This document shows, piece after piece, positions 5,598-61,014 of a DNA stretch of 64,000 nucleotides (positions are counted from its first letter, which is position 1; each line of letters begins with the position of its first letter). Location: NCBI GenBank assembly GCA_010093705.1, contig MU006091.1:1674001-1738000 (forward strand). Direction: 5' to 3'. Source of the stretch: Patellaria atrata CBS 101060 (Eukaryota). The notes below the pieces were generated by a model. The model did no database searches. It was given only the letters and a program-made list of their open reading frames with translations, and was not told the origin of the DNA. The translations under genes and the position numbers were made by a program.

Positions 5598-7717
5598 ATG
5601 CGCGTGTCGACGTTGTTAGGGAGTGTTATTACGCTGGCCAGCGCTGGTAAGAAATCCCCTTTTATGTAGGAGGAGTGTCTAGTACTAAATATATTCCATA
5701 GTCTTCGCACAGTCCGTGTCTTATACCGACCCAGCTACGAGAATTGTTTACCAATCTTATACCAATTCAGATGGCATTTCGTTCCGCATTGCCCTGCCCC
5801 AAGAAGTGTCCACCAACTATGATGCTATCCTCCAGATCGTCAGCCCCGTGTCCAAACCATGGGTTGGGTTTGCATGGGGAGGCACCATGGTGTTTAATCC
5901 ATTGACACTTGGGTGGGCTAATGGTGCCGGCGTTACTTCCTCTTCAAGATTCGCATTGTGAGCTGTGTGTACTCTGCTTTGGGAGACATCTCAGACTGAT
6001 ATGCACTAGTGGTCTCAACACACCAGGTGCCTACGATGGGGAGACCCTCATCCCAATGAAGGGTTCAGGCACGAACAGCACCCATTGGACCATGACAGTT
6101 CTGTGCAAAGGATGCACCAACTGGACCGACAATGAGAACAACCCATATCTGTTGCCCGGAACCAGCACCTCCGTGACATTCGCATGGGCTGTAGGAAACT
6201 CCCCAGTCTACGAGCCCGCAAATAACCAATCGTATTTCGATGTCCATCAGAAATATGGCAAATGGACTCACAATCTGAACGCTGCTCGCAACTCACAGTT
6301 TCAGGGTTGGGTTACAGCAAATGCTCAACCCGCTACTACACCTGGAGGTCCGACAAGCACATCCACCAGTGCCGCCCCAATCTCCACAACCTCAAGCGCC
6401 GTGGTTGCAGGACCTTCAGGGGCTGTCCCAAGCTCTTGCGGTGCTCCTAACCCAAGATACAACCCAGTGCTCAAATCTGGATGGAAGGCTACCAAAGTCT
6501 TAGGCGGCATGACTAACCCCCGCTCTATCGTCTTCGATACCGCAGGTAACATGCTCGTCGTCCAATCCGGCAGGGGTATCTCCATCCACGGCATGTCTGC
6601 CAACGGCTGCGCGTCCGACACCAAGATGCTTATCTCGCAAAACAATCTCAACCACGGTATTGCATTCAGTGTTGATGGAAAGTATCTCTATGCCAGTTCC
6701 GCAACCCAAGTGCTAAGATGGAACTATGATGCTGCATCAAAGTCAGTGCAAGGAAGTTCTACCGTTGTTGTAAAAGGCATGTACCAAGGTATCCATACCA
6801 CACGTACATTGCTTATCGCCCCTCATCAACCCAACCTACTCTTGGTCTCTCACGGTTCCTCTTCGAACTGGGATTACCCAGTTAGCAACCCGACATCTGT
6901 ACCTCGCTCTGTTGTTAAGGTCTTCGATTTGAGCAAGGCACCAAGCGGTGGCTTCGACTGGATTCGTGACGGATGGTTAGCCGGATATGGTCTTAGAAAC
7001 GGTGTTGGTATCGCTTTTGATAATGGAAATATGTGAATCATCTTAACCTACCACTTTACTGTACTATGACTAACATAAACTAGGTTGTGGGAAGTCGAAA
7101 ACTCCGGCGACGATTTCACCCGCCGCGTTAACAACAACAACGTAGACATCCATATCGACAACCCGGCCGAAGAACTCAACTACATCGGCGACGTAACCAA
7201 GGACAACAGGAAGTGGTTCGGCTACCCGACATGCTTCACCGTCTGGCAGCCCCGCCAATTCACCGACACCACCTTCAAGGTTGGCGACCAGTTCGTCGTC
7301 GCGCCCAATAATACCTACAAGGATTCCAACTGCGTCGGCTCGTCTACTCAAGCCTCTCTCTCCTTCCAGGCTCACTCTGCCCCGATCGATCTCAAGTTCG
7401 ACTCCACCAGCAGCAATCTGTTCATCACCTTCCACGGCTCGTGGAACAGACAGCCGACGACCGGCTTCAAGCTCATCAATGTGCCGTTTACAAAGGCCGC
7501 GAATGGCGAATACAGACCCGTGGCGAACCCGGATAGCAACCAGGGTTGGGAGGATATCATGACGAACCCAGATGTAACGAGGTGCGTAGGTAACGGACCC
7601 GTGATGAGCCAGGGATGCTTCAGACCCGCTGGGTTGGGCTTCGATAAGAGCGGAAGATTATATATGACGAGTGATACCACGCAGGAGGGTGAGATTTGGG
7701 TGCTCGGGAAACAGTAG
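5598..7717 (+). CDS. Secreted AA8 (CDH-type cytochrome b) + AA12 (PQQ-dependent sugar dehydrogenase) two-domain protein
   Basis: Signal peptide MRVSTLLGSVITLASA; introns 5647-5701, 5958-6009, 7033-7083. Cytochrome domain with GFAWGGTM (Met ligand) and FDVH (His ligand), then a Ser/Thr linker. Beta-propeller motifs HTTRTL, GLRNGVG, NPAEELN, HSAPIDLKF, FHGSWNR. Confidence 0.9.
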
Positions 7718-47987: not shown

Positions 47988-50900
47988 TTACTTGAAAAAC
48001 CTACTCGAAAACTTACTCACTCTCTTCCCCGCGCTCCCCAATATATCATCAAACGTCTGCGGCCCCTGTCCGGTTGGAGCGGGCTGGCTCTGCGCACTTC
48101 CGGCTGGGGCACCTCCACCCTGTTGATTCACATTCCACGAGTTTGATGGGCTCGGACTTTGCGTGAATCCCGGCGCATATTGACTCTGTGATGGTCTGGG
48201 ACTTCCTCCCGGGGGTGTGCCGTACGGGGGATTCGGATACCCATGCGGTGGTTGCTTATACTGTTGTGATTGCCGCTGTGGTTGGGACTGGAGGGTGCTG
48301 GTCGATTGGTTGAGTGTGCTCGGATATGAACCATACCCGCTATCAACATAGGATCCAGCTCCTGAGCTGTGAGGTTGTGAAAATGGTGGGCTGACTTGGG
48401 TCATTGGCGCCCTTGGTGGATACCCAGCCCCTGGTGTTGGTCCTTCCATTGGCACCGATCCTATATAGGTTTCGGAATGATATCTTCGAGGGTCGGGAGG
48501 ATGTTGACTACCTATACTATTATTGGACAGGTGTGAAGTCAGCGGTGGACGGGCCCCTGGAGAGCCGTAGCTGGAGTCCCGTCCACTTGGACGATAACTA
48601 GTAGGAACAACACTTGAGCCGATTGAGATGGATGAATCGGTACCCCGGTTTGGCACTACTGCGGAAACAGGACTGTTTGAGGAGCCCAGTTCGTATACCG
48701 GGCCGCTGTTCTGGCGTTGGGGTGTCCCGATTGCTTTACGGCGGATACTGTTAGACGTTGATGCCATTGGCTGTGCCTGGGTTTGAGCGTAAACATTATG
48801 ATTATGAGGTTGAGCTTGCGATTTTGGAGGGGATTTCTTTGCGATGCTGAGACTTGGCGGGTAGGGAGAAGTCTCGGCTGGAAGCTGGTATGGTCTTTGA
48901 TCCTGACCATAGCCAACATTATATGGTTGATAAGAATCTCTCTGAGGCGGGCCGTTTGAATAGTGCGATGATGTTGCTTGTTGGTGTTGATACTGATCTT
49001 GAGGAGGCCGCTGGTGTGGTGAATAATTGAGCCCTTGGGGCGGATACTGGCCTTCTGATAGAGGAGCTAGATGTCCTCCCGTCGTCGTGAATTGAGAACC
49101 GTAGGCGCTTTGTCCAGGTAGCGGAGGATGAACCTGTGTACCTTGCGGCCGCCTTACCGATTTCCGGACTGATCGGAACCGTGATATGGTAGGATTCCGT
49201 TTCACCTTTGCCATAGCCTCATCGAGCAACTTTAGGATCTTTGCTTCATCGGTTGAATCTTCAGTGATCTGAAGGCTCACTACACTTGCGCCTTCATCGA
49301 CTGTGGCATTGTCACCCTCATCCTCATCTTCGTATTCTTCCTCGTCATCTTCCTCATCATCATCATCTTCGTCCCCATCGTCTTCAAATTCATCATCGCT
49401 ATTAGCTTCCTCTTCCTCATTGTGTTCGCGTTTCAGAGCGTCCAGAGCTGACCCAAGCACCGGATCTCGAGCTTGAACATTAGCCCCATTCTTCAACAAT
49501 GTTTCGACAACTGACGTTTGGTGATAATAAACGGCCTGGATAAGTGCTTCATCCAGCATCCTGTCAGAGGGGTTCTTATCCAGCAGGAGGGAGACAGTCT
49601 TCGAACATCCCTCGCGAGAAGCTGCGGTTAATGCATGCCCGTACAAACCACCAGTTACATGTATGTTCGCACCATGTTCTAGTAAGCTGGCGACAATTTC
49701 TACACGATCCATGTACGCCGCAGCTTGTAGAGCGGTGCCGTACTTCCCGGATACTTCGTTGACGTCCAAGTCTTTCTCGAGTAAATAGTCAACAAATTCT
49801 TTTGAAGCCTTCAGTGCCGCCGCTTGAAGGCAGTTACCATACTTCCCACCTGATCTCTTGAAGTCGACTTCGTATTCGTCAACGAACTTTTTGAATATCT
49901 CAAAATTATTGCCATAGGATGCAGCTTGAGCGACAGTTCCGAAGAGGCCCCCTTCTAGATGTGGATCTGCGTCGTGTAGGAGTAAGAGGTCCACACATTG
50001 GTCATTATCATACCGGCAAGCTGCTGCTTGTAAAGCTGTATGATACAGTCCTCCGACTTGGTCAACGTCGACGTCCCTCTCCAGGAGATCCTCAATAACG
50101 GCGTAATTGCCTGCATAGGATGCCGCTTGCAAGGCAGTACCATATTCCCCACCTACTTCATGGATGTTAGCATCGGCTGAAATAAGAGCGAAATAGCAAG
50201 CATAGTCTCCTGAAAGTGCAGCAGCCTGTAACGCATTGCCATATTTTCCACCGCTGAGATTGACATCAGCCTGATGAGCGAGCAGAACATTGACGCAATC
50301 AACATCAGTAGCGAAGGCTGCGGCTTGTAATGCGGTACTCCATGGGCCACATTGCTGATTTACATCTGCGCCGTGTTCCAGCAACTGTTTACACATGTCC
50401 TCCTCCCCCTCTGAAGCAGCAGCATGGAGAGCAGCACCGTACATTTCACTGATCGCGTGGATATTTGCTCCTCGCTGTAGTAGGTACTCCACGCCGTCTA
50501 TGTCTCCCGTGGATGCGGTAGCAATAAGAGCAGTATTTCCATCCTTATCGGTGCCCTCTATATCAGCGTCGTGATCCAACAGTAACTGGAGCGATTCTTT
50601 AGGAAGACCAAATCCAGTTAATACCAGTGGTGGTGAGTTACTTTCGCCCCCTTTTACGTTAGCGTTAGCGCCTTGTTTGAGCAGTACTTCCAGCGTCTCG
50701 TGATCCTGTTCGTCTGCAGCCGCAATAATCGGGTAGCCATACTCTCCTCCGCGAATGTTCGGGTCCGCTCCACGCATCAAAAGAAGTTTAACAACATCGG
50801 TATTTCCAGTGTAACTTGCAGCCTGCAGAGCGCTTCCATATTTTCCGTTTGGATCCTGGTTAACTTCAGCACCGTGGTCCAGAAGCATCGTCACGATCCC

Positions 50901-53900
50901 TAGATCACTATTCAGAGCAGCGGCCTGAAGAGCGTTTCCGTAATCACCACCTTGCTTATTAGGATCCGCTCCTTTATCCAGCAGAATTTTGACGATCCCT
51001 TCACTTCCGTCGTATGCAGCTGCTGTGAGAGCGGTACCGTATCTATAAAAAAAATCAGTAACTCACTAAGGAAATAAGCATTAAAGATGGATATAACGCA
51101 CTCTTTGCCTTCGGCATTTGGATCCGCACCGAATCCAACCAGTAGAGCAACAGTAGATTCATTCTCATGATCAGATGCATCATACAACGATTTGTCAAGC
51201 ATCTCTTGGTTGGTCCCTCGCTTCTGCAATAGTTCAAGACATTCATCTCGTCCATAGGATGCCGCAAGGAAAAACGCATTCTGATGACGGATGGTACCGG
51301 AATGGTCAAGCAGTTTTTGGACAATATCAACATTGCCATTTTTCGACGCAATTGCAAGAGCTTGCTCCATGGATGGGTTGTCTGGATTTTTTTCTAGTAA
51401 AGCATGGACACAATCGGTGTGTCCATATGTTGCAGCTGCAGTGACAGCGCTTCCGTAAGTGTTGATCTTACGGTTAACATTCCACCCTTTCTCTAGCAGC
51501 AAACGTACCACGCCATCATGACCACTTCGCGCAGCAGCTCCAAGTGCGCTACCGTACCGATACTCTTCGTCCGGATCTACATCTGCTCCCTTATCGAGCA
51601 ACATCTCGCACGTCTCTCGATGGCCGAAGTACGCTGCAACGTTGATTGGTCTCAAATGTGTTCCACCAGTGATGTTGACATCCGCACCGTTGTCCAGTAG
51701 TATCTTAACTACATCTTTTCTGCCGTACTCCGCTGCAATATAAAGTGGAGTTCCGAACATCTCGTCTTTACCGTTCACGGTGGCTCCTTTTTCAATCATG
51801 TATTGAACCAGTGTAACATGACCTTCGGAAGCAGCATTCCACAGAGCGGTTTTCCCTCCGTCTCGTCGTTGAGCATTAATTTCCGCGCCACCCTTGAGAA
51901 GACGGTCGATCAAAGAGATATCACCTTTTCGACAGGCCCAATATAGTGGTTGGTAACCCCATAGATCCATTTCATGGAGCTCATCTTCATGATAGTTGTC
52001 AAGCAAGTAATCCAGAAGCGCAGCATAGCCGGTAAACGCAGCAACATGAACCGGAGTAAACTTTTCAGAGCCCGCAACGTCTTGTGTTTCTGCATAGCTC
52101 TTCCACCATATTTCCCTACTAGGTGACTCCTTGTACCAGAATGGGTCGCTGAGGTCAAGCTCTTGAACGAGATCAGGTGGCGCCTCCATAGCATGTTGAA
52201 TCCAAAAGTTTCCAGGATAGGTGAGCATTCGGGTTGGGGTATCTTCAATTTCGTTTTCTGCATCGTAATCCACAGCCTCTTCTTCTCCTGCGTTGGTCTC
52301 AATATCCTGTGTATCCGCTCCTTCGGTGGCATCATTTTCGACGCCTTCATCTTGTACTTGCTGATTATCATCCTGATCATACTCGAATCCTTTATCCTCA
52401 TCGCCGCTATTCTTTTCAACATGATCACTCGACGAAACCGGCTTTCGACCCACTTGTAGAGAAGCGGGAAGCGCATTGTTGGTCTCAATATCCGATAAAG
52501 CTGCATCACCCTGAACTTTCTCAGTGTTCGTGTTGTTATTGCGATTCTCATCATTCTCTTCCGAATTTGTATCATCTACACCGTCCTCTTCCTCATGCTC
52601 AATCTCTGCTTCTTCAGCTGCTGGCACTTCAGCCAAAGTAGTCTTGCGCACATAATCGAGGCAACGAAGGGCAATGATCCCATGCTGCAGGTCGACGGGC
52701 TCTAGAGATAGCTGGTCTTTGGCATATCGTTCCAGATGCTCTTTCGCTGCTTTGTCGATCCACTCGACCGTCTCATCATCGTATTCGTTTATTGTAATGA
52801 AACCTCCACAGCTTTGCACATGCCGCTTGAGAGCTTCCGCGTCATTACGCTCATATTCTGGTAGATCCGCTATAACAGCAAGGTCGTATATTGTGGGCGC
52901 TACTGCAGCGATGATGAGGCATCGAAAGATCTCTTTAGTATACTCTATTCCATAATTTGTCGGATTGAGTACCTGGTTAAAGAGTCAGTTTGGATCTTAT
53001 GCGGGATTGTATTTAGATTCTCTAAGCGCGCTTACTCTGCGACGAATGTGCTCGAAGATTTCCGTCAATCCGTAAGGGAAAGCTTCTAAAAACTTTCTTA
53101 TCGTCGAATTATCCACCTGAGCAGGATCGAGATTCTTTAATTCTTGAATCACCAGACTGACATATATGTAATTACTTTGCGCTTTTCCGTAGATATGTCG
53201 TTTAATGAAGTAGGCAAGTCCGGAATTGTACCCCTTTAACACCGCAAGTCTGTCAACCTCGTAGGAGATCTGGGCTTTAACACCGTCATTGATAAAACTG
53301 ATGTTCTCTTTATCTTCCATATCTATCACCAATGCGCCTTTCAACGCTTTTTCGATATCTGGTCGGCCCGACCTACTTAATAGAGTCCATTTGACCGGGG
53401 TATCCTCAGAGTTATCAGCGTCCTCGGAATTAACCTCATCTAGGTCTACAACTTTGTCCTTTTCCTCTGGTTCTGAGGCTATAAGATACAACTGAAGTAA
53501 CCCTAGAAACTCGGTTAAAGATTCAGTATCCATTTCATCCAACCCGTTGATAATAAAATGAACGGTGCCAACGCTGGAGTTCCGCAGAATATTCTGCATG
53601 TGATTCCACATAACAGACGCGGCGGCTACTTCAAATGTGATCTCAGAGTTGTCCCCCTTTTTACCCTTGGTCTGATCACTGAGGAGATATTCCGTCAGGT
53701 CTGGCTTCTTCTCTATCATTTGCCGTACTAGAACCTTGAAAACATCGAGAGAGCTTCTTCGATTAGGATCCTTTTCGTCGCAAAAGAAGTAGGCTGTAAA
53801 GACAGTCAGACTCTCGTCTTTGCTAGTTTCAGATTTCAAATCTTGAATAATCGAAGAGGCTATGACAGCTTGACCTTGACCGGCGGAACCATGAATCCAG

Positions 53901-55296
53901 AGCACCTGAGACTTCTCACTCTTTTTCCATTCGACGTATTGATCATTACTCGTAATCCAAGCGCCTTGGTTTGCAGGTCGACCTTTTACGCTTGCTTCCA
54001 TGTCTTTTGCCGGATCCGTTACCATCAGAGCGCGGAGAATTGCAATCCAAGCCCCGTCATCTACCAATGCTTGACGCTTTGCATTCTGGCGGCCCTTGAT
54101 GATACCACGAGACTTCTGCACCATGGTGCTTATCTCCCCTGAGACCGCCACGTACCGTCCGTCTTTAGGCCCTTCGAATTTATTGAGTTGAAAATGGTCA
54201 GAAGCTAGGGAACTTTTGTTGTATCCTAGGATAGTTGCTGAGTCTTCTTCCACAACATGTTCCTGTGCAAACACTTGTTAGGAAATTGTTCGCACTCGAA
54301 GTGAGGAGTAATATGAATACCATATGTTTCAAACCGGATCTGCCCAGTATGGTATGCTTGAGCAATAAGGCCGCTGTATCACTTTCATACTGTTCCCAAA
54401 AGCAGAACAAGCCGATCTTGGCATCTCTTGCAACGGAGACAAATTGCTCGAGTAAATCTTTAAGGAACTCATTTCCGGCCTCCAGAATTTTCATTAGGCC
54501 AGAATTGATACCTAGACCTACAGCGCTTGCTAGTTCAGCGAACATTGATGCTTTTGCTTGAGACTTCGTGCCCCTGAATGGAGTTCCTAGGAAAACGCAT
54601 CCAACTATAGAGCTAAAGATGTTGGGATAGTAATTCTGATGTAGTTTCGCGGCCAGAACTGCCTAAGCTTCAATTTCAGAGGGATGTTTATCATTGAATT
54701 ACCTGTTACTGACCCTTTCTGTGATAATACCGCCTAGACAGTGGCAAACAAAGACGATTGGTCGAGTTGATCCCCTCTGTGGATTCCATTAGTATATGAT
54801 CTTGTTGGGGGATGTTATTTAAGGACTGGGAACATCATACTGGTCTATTATAAACGAGAGCTTGCATCAACTGATTGGCAACATTCTCGAGTTTATTGTC
54901 AATGGCACCTTTTCCGAACCATTGGCTAGTATACTCGAAAACCATGATTCTGCAACTGGGAATCTTGCTATAGAGCATGTTTGCATCGGCCAGCCAATCT
55001 GTTTTCTCCTTTCTCCACGTATAGATTGGGTTTGCGCCCAGTCCAGGGACAGCGACGATACTGAGGGATGTTAGCTGTTACCCTACCCACCCCAGGACCT
55101 TGGTGACATACTCGACAGAGATTTCATGATTGCTTGACTTTCCCGCTTCATTGGGATTAGGGATAACTTTGAGACCTTGATTAATTTGCTGTGCGGCGTC
55201 ATTATCAAGACGGAAAACACGTCTTTGAGATGTTTCTCTTACAGTTTGATCTAGTTTCGAGTGCTTCGGCTTAGGATCACGGGTAACCGTTGCCAT
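47988..55296 (-). CDS. NLR-like protein: SesB-like alpha/beta hydrolase - NACHT-like domain - ankyrin repeats - acidic stretch - Q/P/S/G/Y-rich C-terminal tail (about 2200 aa)
   Basis: DIVAVPGLG, PIVFVCHCLGG, VFLGTPFRG, CFWEQ, HVVEEDSA, DHFQLNKF; then VLWIHGSAGQGQ, AYFFCD, FIINGLDE; more than 20 YGxALQAAA ankyrin repeats. Six canonical introns join the ORF pieces. Confidence 0.88.
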
Positions 55297-57820: not shown

Positions 57821-58972
57821 ATGCCTAGGGTGTATCCGACAATTGACGGCAAACCATCGAGCTCTCTCTCTCCATCCATCGTAGAGTCAATTGCTGGCTT
57901 TTCTGCTGGTGTAATGGCGACATTGGCCGTACATCCTTTCGATGTCCTTAAAACGCGCCTTCAATGTATGCTCGAATATACAACAATCAGCATGTGGATC
58001 TAACTTGCGCCTTAGTGGATCAGAATTATCAATCGAAACCAGGTGAATCTATCCGAATACTTCGCAATATCGTCCGCAATGAGGGTAGCTATGGCGCCCT
58101 GTACCGCGGTCTTATGCCGAACATGATCGGTAATTCTGTCAGTTGGGCATTATACTTTCTATGGTGGGTTTATTTCAGTGGCAATCCCGATCCATATTCC
58201 TCTGACACTTGAAGTGCAGGTATCGCAATTTCAAAGATGCCTTCCAAGAGTATAGAGGCGAGGGCGGTCGCTTGACATCTTTGGATTATTTCCTTGCCTC
58301 CGGAACATCAGGTGAGGGTTGCGTCAGGTCATGACCCTAAACACACTCTAATAGCATATATAGGTGTTATGACAGCAATCTGTACTAATCCAATATGGGT
58401 AATCAAGACGAGAATGCTCTCGAGTGGCCGCAATGCCCCCGGAGCATACCGCAACATCTGGCACGGTGTCACTGACATATATGGCAAGGAAGGCGGGGCC
58501 GGGTTCTACAGAGGGCTTTTACCATCCCTTTTCGGAGTATCTCATGGTGCTATTCAATTCATGGCCTACGAGCAGTTGAAGCATTACCGGGGCTCGAAGA
58601 TAGGAGGCGAATCCAAACTTAGCAACTTCGACTACCTCTATCTGAGTGCGCTTTCCAAGATCTTCGCGGGTAGCATAACATACCCTTATCAAGTCGTCCG
58701 TTCGCGGTTGCAGACCTATGATGCTCAACTTTCGAAGCGTTCTGCGCGAGATGTTGTACACCAGGTCTGGAAAGGAGAAGGCTGGCGTGGATTCTACAAA
58801 GGGTGCGATTTCCCGCCAGCATACATTCAAGGATTTACGAGCATGTGTTAACCATTTTAGACTTGCTCCGAATATTATCCGAGTCCTACCGTCAACATGC
58901 GTAACATTTCTTGTATACGAGAATACCAAGTTCTATTTACCCCGCTTCTGGTCGCCAGAGAAAAATCTCTAA
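57821..58972 (+). CDS. FLX1: Mitochondrial carrier, FAD/folate transporter-like
   Basis: Three PxDxxKxR-type repeats (HPFDVLKTRLQ, NPIWVIKTRM, YPYQVVRSRLQ), SWALYFLWY, VSHGAIQFMAYE, RVLPSTCVTFLVYE. Four introns. Confidence 0.9.
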
Positions 58973-59616
58973 AGGATGCAGTTTGAAACTGCGAACATCA
59001 TCTGTAATTATACAACCGTGTTTGGAGAATTGGTGCAGCCGGAACCAGCGTATTGTGTAGATACCCAGGACGCTTGAGTGGTACTGTATTTCGTAAAGTT
59101 AAGCCATTCTATGATCGCAATAGGAGTTGTCTGTCAAATTCATGGAAGGGTTCTGGAGAGCAGGTGTGCTTGCACTCTGTTTATCCTGACGGAGCATTGA
59201 TCTCTTTCATTCACCTGTGTCCAGATGATGAACGGCGTGTACAGTACTTATGATCGGATATGATTGCTCCTTGCGAGTTGCCAAATATCAAATATCACCA
59301 TCTACTCTCTTACTTGCAGTGCTGTATATCGATTGCGACCGCCTTCAACAACACTCTCGTATTTTTCATACAAGCTTCCACGCGTAATGAAGTAGCTCTA
59401 GAGTGTTGTAAAGAAGCTTGAATGATGCTGATGTGGTTGTATGCGCCAAGCAATAGAGATCAAGACCTATCTGGTACTATAATTAGAACTAGCCGACCCA
59501 CACAATAAATGCCAAAGGGAAAAATCATATCCGGAAATCGGCCCTCTGTTACCTCATTGTTGTGGTAATTCTTACTTATCTATTATATGTCTATTCACGG
59601 GCCGGCGAATAAACAA

Positions 59617-59768
59617 GCCTTCATAGCTCAGTTGGTAGAGTAATTACTCCCCCTTCTTCACCTTTTCGGCTTGAAATCAGCCCACTAACATTGTCAGGCG
59701 TTTCACTAGTAAAGATCAGGAAATACACTGGTATGAAAAGGTCATCAGTTCGATTCTGATTGAAGGCA
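59617..59768 (+). tRNA. tRNA-Thr(AGT) with a canonical 37/38 intron (59712-59732) and an additional 58-nt D-arm insertion with spliceosomal-intron signals (59640-59697)
   Basis: Acceptor GCCTTCA/TGAAGGC; D-stem GCTC/GAGC after removing 59640-59697; anticodon stem TTTCA/TGAAA with loop CT-AGT-A/A; T-arm ATCAG-TTCGATT-CTGAT. A and B boxes intact; oligo-T terminator follows. Confidence 0.9.
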
Positions 59769-59774
59769 TATCTA

Positions 59775-59791
59775 TTTTTTTGTTTTTTTTT
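59775..59791 (+). terminator. RNA polymerase III oligo-dT terminator of the tRNA gene
   Basis: TTTTTTT-G-TTTTTTTTT starting 7 nt after the discriminator base. Confidence 0.8.
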
Positions 59792-60444
59792 AATATTCTT
59801 GTTTGCCCGATATTCATTCTACCGAACAGTCAATATCAGGGGTAACGACTCCCTTTTTTCATTCTTCCGTATAGTAGACGCTCCTAGAAGAAGTCCAGAG
59901 CATCAAAGGGACGGTGAGTGTTTACAATCGAGCGTCAAAAGGGCTGTGCTACTCTGTACTGCGGTGACCACAAACATCTGCGGACAATTTGGAAGTGCTG
60001 GAGGGCTGAGTCACAATTGATTTTTCAGCATGTCTCGTGGCGTAGACATTCTTTGTGTTTCAAGTGCAAAACAATTATATAGTTCGATAGAACTAGAAAT
60101 TCAGCACAGTTATCATTATTATCCTACTACAGTGAAAAGGTATTTCGAGCATACTCCGTACACGACATCTAATGTCAAAAGATCATCAGGGGCTCGAGAA
60201 GGTCCGTGCATCCAAATTTCAGTATCAAGAACACCACCCCCTTGTCCCACCACCATCAGATTCTGAGCCTGTCTCACGACGACAGCGACGAAAAGGAAAG
60301 CGAAGTCCATCCCCACTGTTGATTCCACAAAGCTCAGAGAATCCCAATCTATCAAATTCAGCTCATCCCTTATCCCCGGTCCAGTATCTACAAGTACTGA
60401 CACACGATGCTCTCTCTATCCCATCTTCTCTCCCATTAACGATA

Positions 60445-61014
60445 ATGCCCCCAACATCCTCGATCCCTCTCCTCATCGCCTCCATTGGCAACCCTGGCCC
60501 CGCCTATGCCGACACGCTGCACTCCGCTGGCCACACTGCACTTGACGCTCTGCGTGTCCTTCTCAACTACCCATCCTTTTCCAAATCTCGTGCTCTCGGT
60601 AGTCTAGTCTCCCTCCCGCCGTCCCCCGACCTACCATGGACGCTCTACCAATCTCCAACCCTAATGAACGTGTCCGGTCCCGCCATTTCCTCTGTATGGC
60701 GCGCTTGGCCGTACTCTGGAGTGGGAGCCGGAGGCGTGTTGGTTATCGTGCACGACGAGTTGGAAAAGGGGTTGGGGAGCGTGAATGTGAAGAGGAGCGG
60801 GAGTCCGAGAGGCCATAATGGGCTCAAAAGTATTATCAAGTCCCTACCCGGGGTCGACTTTGTGAGAGTTGGAGTGGGGATCGGTAGGCCTGAGAGTAGG
60901 GAGCCGGGAGTAGTTTCGAACTATGTGCTCAGCAAGATGAACGGGAGAGAGAGGAAAGTCGTGGAGGATTCCGCGTGGGGGATTCTGAAGGCACTTCAGG
61001 AGATCAGGGGTTAG
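60445..61014 (+). CDS. PTH1: Peptidyl-tRNA hydrolase (Pth1 family); the ORF is open further upstream to ATG 60172
   Basis: LIASIGNPG, HSAGH, PTLMNVSG, LVIVHDELE, GHNGLKS, RVGVGIGRP. Confidence 0.9.
   Translation: MPPTSSIPLLIASIGNPGPAYADTLHSAGHTALDALRVLLNYPSFSKSRALGSLVSLPPSPDLPWTLYQSPTLMNVSGPAISSVWRAWPYSGVGAGGVLVIVHDELEKGLGSVNVKRSGSPRGHNGLKSIIKSLPGVDFVRVGVGIGRPESREPGVVSNYVLSKMNGRERKVVEDSAWGILKALQEIRG

Follow-up and report, generated by a model that had tools for sequence, protein, structure and literature searches.

A tRNA-Thr(AGT) gene in a dothideomycete-like ascomycete with a candidate mRNA-type intron in the D-arm and a canonical intron at 37/38

Results

Anatomy of the interrupted tRNA-Thr(AGT) gene

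Within the 64-kb stretch of DNA that was analysed (the window), positions 59617-59768 of the plus strand hold a tRNA-like locus that scores 42.4 bits against Rfam RF00005 (gathering score 29; E = 2.7e-07). In a 1.4-kb search the alignment runs over the locus from end to end (model positions 1-71), leaving about 90 central bases unaligned. When 59640-59697 are deleted in silico, ARAGORN returns a tRNA-Thr(AGT) of 73 nt and reports a further intron of length 21 ('Intron Insertion Position(37-38)').

Three exons can be laid out from these results. Exon 1 (59617-59639, +), delimited by ARAGORN after excision, by RF00005 and by the sequence itself, comprises the 5' strand of the acceptor stem, positions 8-9, the 5' strand of the D-stem and the D-loop, together with bases 22-23, the first two of the 3' strand of the D-stem; it ends in GGTAGA and includes the A-box region. 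A GT-AG intron-like insert of 58 nt (59640-59697, +), defined by sequence, chance rate and geometry, then lies between tRNA positions 23 and 24. Exon 2 (59698-59711, +; ARAGORN after excision) supplies the rest of the D-stem (24-25), position 26, the 5' strand of the anticodon stem and the loop as far as A37, with the AGT anticodon at 59708-59710. It is separated by the canonical tRNA intron of 21 nt at 37/38 (59712-59732, +; ARAGORN and constrained fold) from exon 3 (59733-59768, +; ARAGORN and RF00005), which carries A38, the 3' strand of the anticodon stem, the variable loop, the T-arm with the B-box region, the 3' strand of the acceptor stem and the discriminator A73.

An earlier note on this DNA had described a cloverleaf split by 58 nt at 59640-59697, and both the coordinates and the letters are as described. 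It spoke of a single interruption; the 58-nt insert is indeed there, and the second interruption, the 21-nt intron at 59712-59732, had been missed. The borders of this 21-nt intron can be moved by 1 nt, and in a constrained fold it contributes an ACTGG that pairs with CTAGT in the anticodon loop, the arrangement seen in ordinary pre-tRNAs of eukaryotes. As far as the letters can tell, the presence of two interruptions of two kinds in one tRNA gene, a 58-nt insert of apparently mRNA type and a canonical intron at 37/38, is confirmed.

With both interruptions removed, the stems of 7, 4, 5 and 5 bp consist entirely of Watson-Crick pairs (21/21), and the minimum-energy fold of the 73-mer is a perfect cloverleaf (-19.9 kcal/mol), in agreement with the earlier statement that excision restores the D-stem and leaves every stem paired. 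The invariant bases U8, A14, G18, G19, A21, U33, G53-C56, A58 and C61 are all kept. Marks of decay, that is stem mismatches or missing invariant bases, are found nowhere in the tRNA.

Pol III signals and genomic neighbourhood

A reading against the consensus finds both box regions, A and B, intact, and the distance from A to B is increased by 79 nt. A Pol III terminator, made up of T7 and T9 runs, was located from a listing of T-runs at 59775-59791 (+), 7 nt past the 3' end of the tRNA. Within the gene, the only run of at least four T residues is TTTT at 59663-59666, inside the insert, and there is no run of T5 or longer.

The interrupted gene is intergenic and shares its strand with both neighbours. 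Upstream, the coding sequence of a mitochondrial-carrier gene stops about 650 nt away; downstream, the ATG of a PTH-like gene (peptidyl-tRNA hydrolase family) lies at a distance of about 400 nt. The labels FLX1 and PTH1 that had been attached to these neighbours are thus borne out at the level of the family. The downstream gene (60136-61011, +) matches Pfam PF01195 with E = 1.5e-32 and has an N-terminal extension of about 110 aa; that a tRNA gene adjoins a peptidyl-tRNA hydrolase gene is probably a coincidence. In the same intergenic region, 59221-59307 (+) gives a sub-threshold match to the C/D-box snoRNA snR55 (19.2 bits versus 50, E = 2.3), probably by chance. Elsewhere in the window, a very large gene at 47991-54662 (-) combines NPHP3_N/NACHT with long ankyrin-repeat ORFs of 426, 690 and 1,024 aa, the architecture of a fungal NLR-like protein.

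As to lineage, the best named relatives of a neighbouring CWC2-like protein are Dothideomycetes, with 74-78% identity (Cenococcum 78%, Mytilinidion 76%, and Botryosphaeria, Diplodia and Coniosporium about 75%), and an atlas look-up likewise points to Ascomycota. For this class, the accessible part of PMC4457414 describes introner-like elements and contemporary intron gain.

Detection by tRNA finders

Under default settings ARAGORN makes no tRNA call at the locus, and RF00005 run over the whole 64-kb window misses it both at the gathering threshold and at E up to 0.1. That standard finders would probably miss or mis-score the gene had been predicted from the sequence, and both behaved as predicted; annotation at genome scale would probably miss it too. 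With introns allowed, ARAGORN proposes a tRNA-Cys(ACA), which was rejected for its 74-nt intron at 33/34, its mismatched anticodon stem and its odd variable region.

In-silico excision followed by a tRNA finder, put forward as a check in the earlier note, singles out the same interval when run over the window, the only proper Thr(AGT) reading being obtained from 59640+58. Excising 6,571 GT..CTRAY..AG segments across the window yielded 21 ARAGORN calls, all 21 of them at the tRNA-Thr locus, and a Thr(AGT) with a second intron at 37/38 emerged from 59640+58 only. A metagenome scan for the D-arm followed by 35-65 nt and GCG-N5-CTAGTAA returned three loci and no interrupted tRNA gene; each of the three is a bacterial-type tRNA gene without interruption, in which the downstream part was matched by chance.

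Intron signals of the 58-nt insert

The insert opens with the donor GTAATT (59640-59645; GT at 59640-59641) and closes with the acceptor CAG (59695-59697; AG at 59696-59697). Its branch motif ACTAAC (59684-59689) starts 14 nt from the intron end, so that the A presumed to serve as branch point lies at 59688, 9 nt ahead of the final G of the insert, and its pyrimidine content is 65.5%. The start, the pyrimidine-rich interior, the branch motif and the end are all as had been described. Because a G follows both GGTAGA and CAG, the borders of the insert can be shifted by 1 nt, and of the two possible positions only one gives GT-AG.

Such a combination of signals is rare in the window. The pattern GT..CTAAC..AG, with CTAAC within the last 35 to 4 nt, occurs in 11 of 127,884 58-nt windows (both strands, real introns included), and loosening CTAAC to CTRAY raises this to 44 of 127,884. 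GTA..ACTAAC..YAG is found in a single one of the 127,884, namely the insert itself. The intron signals of the insert are therefore far above the chance rate.

For comparison with local mRNA introns, a reference set of seven introns in the window was fixed by continuity of Pfam profiles or of conserved carrier motifs; the second junction of Sec15_C was excluded as ambiguous. Deriving mRNA introns from ORF joining alone gave 376 candidates in 58 groups, which was too noisy, and unsupervised refinement gave nonsense. The seven reference introns measure 49-132 nt (median 52), so that the insert, at 58 nt, is within range. In these introns the branch motif begins 14-26 nt from the intron end, a range that includes the 14 nt of the insert. 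Their donors are GTGAGC, GTGAAT, GTAAGT, GTATGT, GTAAGT, GTATGC and GTGCGA, with G at +5 in six, A in one and T in none, and the insert has a T at this position (GTAATT). The donor is the weak point of the match. The earlier claim that size and signals match those of the mRNA introns in the window stands for the GT-AG ends, the branch distance and the length, and fails for the G at +5. Taken together, the ends, the branch motif, the distance from branch to acceptor and the length support the reading of the insert as an mRNA-type intron.

Two of the reference introns deserve separate mention. In the neighbouring mitochondrial-carrier gene, the last intron (58803-58860) is exactly 58 nt long, with a GTGCGA donor, a TTAAC-type branch motif at the same distance of 14 nt and a TAG end; no sequence similarity was found between it and the tRNA insert. 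The intron at 7033-7083, fixed by continuity of the TrAA12 profile, has the donor GTGAAT, with A at +5 and so likewise without G, and shares ACTAACAT with the branch region of the tRNA insert. Its host gene encodes a cellobiose-dehydrogenase cytochrome domain and a TrAA12-like domain.

Structure and reality of the insertion

No second copy of the insert is present in the 64-kb window, where the best other blastn-short match is 11 nt long. The ends of the insert, GTAATTAC... and ...ATTGTCAG, do not form inverted repeats, and its borders show no duplication of the target site other than one shared flanking nucleotide. The lack of inverted repeats and of a duplication longer than 1 nt fits the insertion of an intron rather than of a DNA transposon, and by its sequence the insert does not look like a typical DNA transposon or MITE. 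A perfect 12-nt palindrome, GAGTAATTACTC, spans the 5' junction of the insert at 59638-59649 and, in the predicted fold, forms a small hairpin in which the first bases of the donor are buried; it could be due to chance or be a trace of the arrival of the insert.

Logan contigs from two runs of one sample cover the insert with no differences and no joint, at depths of 323 and 460, which rules out a scaffolding artefact. The two runs probably represent DNA and may be the assembly's own source, and they count as one biological sample rather than as independent biology. Among the contigs of both runs no pieces of a paralogue were found at 80% likeness, a search in which short tRNA matches may be filtered out.

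Predicted folding of the unspliced precursor

The unspliced 152-mer has a predicted minimum energy of -40.6 kcal/mol, versus -20.1 kcal/mol for the fold constrained to the cloverleaf. The acceptor stem and the T-arm are predicted to be kept, and the middle to be trapped in a non-cloverleaf fold. Within the insert (59661-59677), CCTTTTC is complementary to the 3' strand of the anticodon stem (59735-59741) and TGAAAT to its 5' strand (59700-59705); by pairing with both strands, the insert is predicted to keep the precursor out of the cloverleaf until it is spliced. For the branch A's the prediction is an unpaired state (probabilities 0.95-0.99), and for the donor bases 59638-59640 it is pairing in the small hairpin (unpaired probability 0.0). 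The predicted folding fits a departure of the 58 nt before the other steps of maturation.

Discussion

A tRNA gene that may need two splicing machineries

The best explanation of the locus appears to be that a dothideomycete-like ascomycete has here a nuclear tRNA-Thr(AGU) gene with two different kinds of intron. The anatomy of the gene and the likeness of its insert to an intron can be read from the letters; from these we infer transcription, splicing and the order of steps. That the spliceosome removes the 58-nt insert and that the gene works has, in our judgement, close to an even chance. We hold slightly more tentatively that this would be a natural nuclear tRNA in need of both machineries, the spliceosome for the intron in the D-arm and the tRNA endonuclease for the one in the anticodon loop. 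The argument for function comes from one locus in one sample.

The insert would be a recently gained spliceosomal intron, which may have arrived by reverse splicing into the pre-tRNA and copying back to DNA, or as an introner-like element. Pol III would produce a precursor of about 152 nt, not counting leader and trailer, in which the D-arm could not form. The nuclear spliceosome would then excise the 58 nt as a lariat and join position 23 to position 24, and only with the 58 nt gone would the tRNA body fold. The usual steps would come next: the ends would be processed, the tRNA exported, and the 21-nt intron taken out by the tRNA splicing endonuclease and ligase.

Several points speak against splicing: the T at donor +5, the paired donor bases, the T4 run at 59663-59666, which could terminate some Pol III transcripts, and the predicted misfolding. 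Moreover, we know of no Pol III transcripts other than U6 that are natural substrates of the spliceosome, and a literature search, with subscription journals largely outside its range, returned no tRNA gene with a natural spliceosomal intron.

Alternative explanations

The same observations lend weight to the view that the locus is a freshly inactivated copy of tRNA-Thr(AGU), a pseudogene too young for decay whose Pol III transcripts are unspliced or too rarely spliced. We regard this as a real possibility, somewhat below an even chance. The insert would then be intron-derived sequence that came in through reverse splicing and retro-copying, as an introner-like element or by break repair. The weak donor GTAATT, without the G at +5 found in six of the seven local introns, could be a first sign of decay, and the predicted misfolding of the precursor, the T4 run inside the insert and the failure of the literature search to turn up a natural spliced tRNA all agree with a dead copy. 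tRNA-Thr(AGU) is usually encoded by multiple copies, a redundant isoacceptor family, so that a dead copy would be tolerated. Additionally, ongoing intron gain in Dothideomycetes, as far as the accessible part of PMC4457414 describes it, would lead one to expect very recent insertions.

On the other hand, no defect is seen in the 21 stem pairs, the invariant bases, the pairing of the canonical intron or the terminator, and since the tRNA is free of defects throughout, the insertion must be very recent if the copy is dead. The earlier note had taken the perfect stems as an argument against a decayed pseudogene; the argument holds for an old pseudogene and does not reach as far as a very young one. 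Furthermore, an insert with exact splice-site ends should be spliceable in principle, and the accessible text of PMC5855946 presents S. pombe U6 as a fungal Pol III transcript that is spliced.

The spliceosome might alternatively act on a Pol II transcript, for instance read-through from the carrier gene, with the tRNA being freed by RNase P and RNase Z or with the spliced RNA having nothing to do with tRNA production. Such a substrate would suit a machinery that normally acts on Pol II transcripts, and the tRNA lies on the strand of its neighbours, about 650 nt past the stop of the carrier gene, and the PTH-like ATG follows it at about 400 nt. We nevertheless consider it improbable: the A- and B-box regions and the terminator of the tRNA gene are intact, and the exact restoration of the D-stem would go without explanation unless the tRNA is the product.

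Still less probable, and in our view very unlikely, is that the tRNA splicing endonuclease excises the insert as a non-canonical BHB tRNA intron of the sort present in Archaea and in some red algae. In vitro, BHB substrates can be cut by the eukaryotic endonucleases, and on paper the cuts after 59639 and 59697 would fall in 3-nt bulges around a 4-bp GGUA/UGUC helix. This helix is the only candidate for a BHB central helix; two of its four pairs are, however, G-U, the adjoining helices are absent or start with mismatches, the ensemble gives it a pair probability of about 1e-9, and imposing it on the fold would cost 14.6 kcal/mol. The strict 4-bp geometry test fails on the gene's own canonical 21-nt intron as well, so that it is uninformative on ruler-type recognition at 37/38 and bears only on a BHB route elsewhere in the molecule. 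In addition, the four-subunit tRNA endonuclease of fungi and animals removes introns at 37/38 only, according to the accessible part of a 2023 review (PMC10485636), and the GT..ACTAAC..CAG of the insert would have to be a coincidence (about 1e-4). Removal of the 58-nt insert by the tRNA endonuclease is disfavoured by these predictions.

An equally slight chance attaches to random filler DNA that mimics an intron in a dead gene, its signals being meaningless, which has nothing specific in its favour beyond the single locus and the lack of a second insert copy in the window, and against which stand the low frequency of GT..CTAAC..AG (11 of 127,884 windows even with real introns counted in) and the agreement of length and branch distance with those of local introns.

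Implications

If the tRNA-Thr(AGU) precursor is spliced as we propose, the spliceosome acts on a Pol III pre-tRNA in nature, and the gene would be the first case of a tRNA that hosts a spliceosomal intron, adding tRNA to U6, U1, U2, U5 and rRNA as structural-RNA hosts. mRNA-type introns in structural RNA genes, including the Pol III-transcribed U6, are already known; a tRNA host, as plausibly proposed here, would be new. It would offer a natural substrate on which to ask what the spliceosome needs beyond the three signals (cap, Pol II tail, folding state), and intron gain in Dothideomycetes would extend beyond mRNA. A further hint would be that more genes of this kind escape standard tRNA finders in fungi that gain introns. 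Since ARAGORN under default settings and the whole-window Rfam search both miss this one, counts of tRNA genes in such fungi may be too low. Should the copy turn out to be dead, it would still capture, like a dated snapshot, the landing of an intron in a target other than mRNA, and would bear on models in which introns are gained by reverse splicing or from introners.

Comparison with known systems

An intron in the D-stem of a tRNA gene has an organellar counterpart in chloroplast trnG-UCC, which carries a group II intron that is removed by a lariat mechanism; this intron is about 700 nt long and is a self-splicing-type ribozyme, not a spliceosomal intron. As to the spliceosome itself, Koehrer, Vogel and Domdey (EMBO J, 1990) are said to have engineered a yeast tRNA gene with a pre-mRNA intron that was spliced by the pre-mRNA machinery. 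The construct was reportedly artificial and would show that the mechanism is possible.

BHB introns of Archaea and some red algae resemble the tRNA-Thr insert in lying outside 37/38, including in the D-arm; they sometimes occur several to a gene and are missed by standard finders, as far as the accessible parts of PMC10485636 and PMC3978253 describe them. In these sources they are defined by the BHB and cut by a protein endonuclease, whereas the tRNA-Thr insert does not form a BHB and its signals look spliceosomal.

The introner-like elements of Dothideomycetes are, in the accessible part of PMC4457414, newly gained spliceosomal introns in the class to which the CWC2-like protein points, and they are said there to become indistinguishable from regular introns soon. 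They differ in residing in unrelated genes, with no tRNA host named in that part of the source. Membership among them calls for many near-identical copies, and within the 64-kb window no second copy of the insert is found.

Spliceosomal introns in fungal structural RNA genes come nearest. The accessible text of PMC5855946 reports them in the U1, U2 and U5 snRNA genes of Rhodotorula and in ascomycete rRNA genes. They share with the tRNA-Thr insert the spliceosomal type and a fungal structural RNA host, in the case of rRNA one that is not transcribed by Pol II; the host RNAs are different ones, and no tRNA is among those named in that text. The same source describes the single U6 gene of Schizosaccharomyces pombe as transcribed by Pol III, with an intron removed by the spliceosome and with a proposed origin by reverse splicing and reverse transcription. 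Fungal U6, as presented there, and tRNA-Thr(AGT) are both Pol III non-coding genes with a short intron that has a canonical 5' site, a branch site and a 3' site. U6, however, sits in the catalytic centre of the spliceosome, which explains why introns land in it, whereas a tRNA has no such contact. The splicing of U6 is known from experiment and that of tRNA-Thr is predicted from sequence, and the tRNA, unlike U6, would additionally need the tRNA endonuclease for its second intron.
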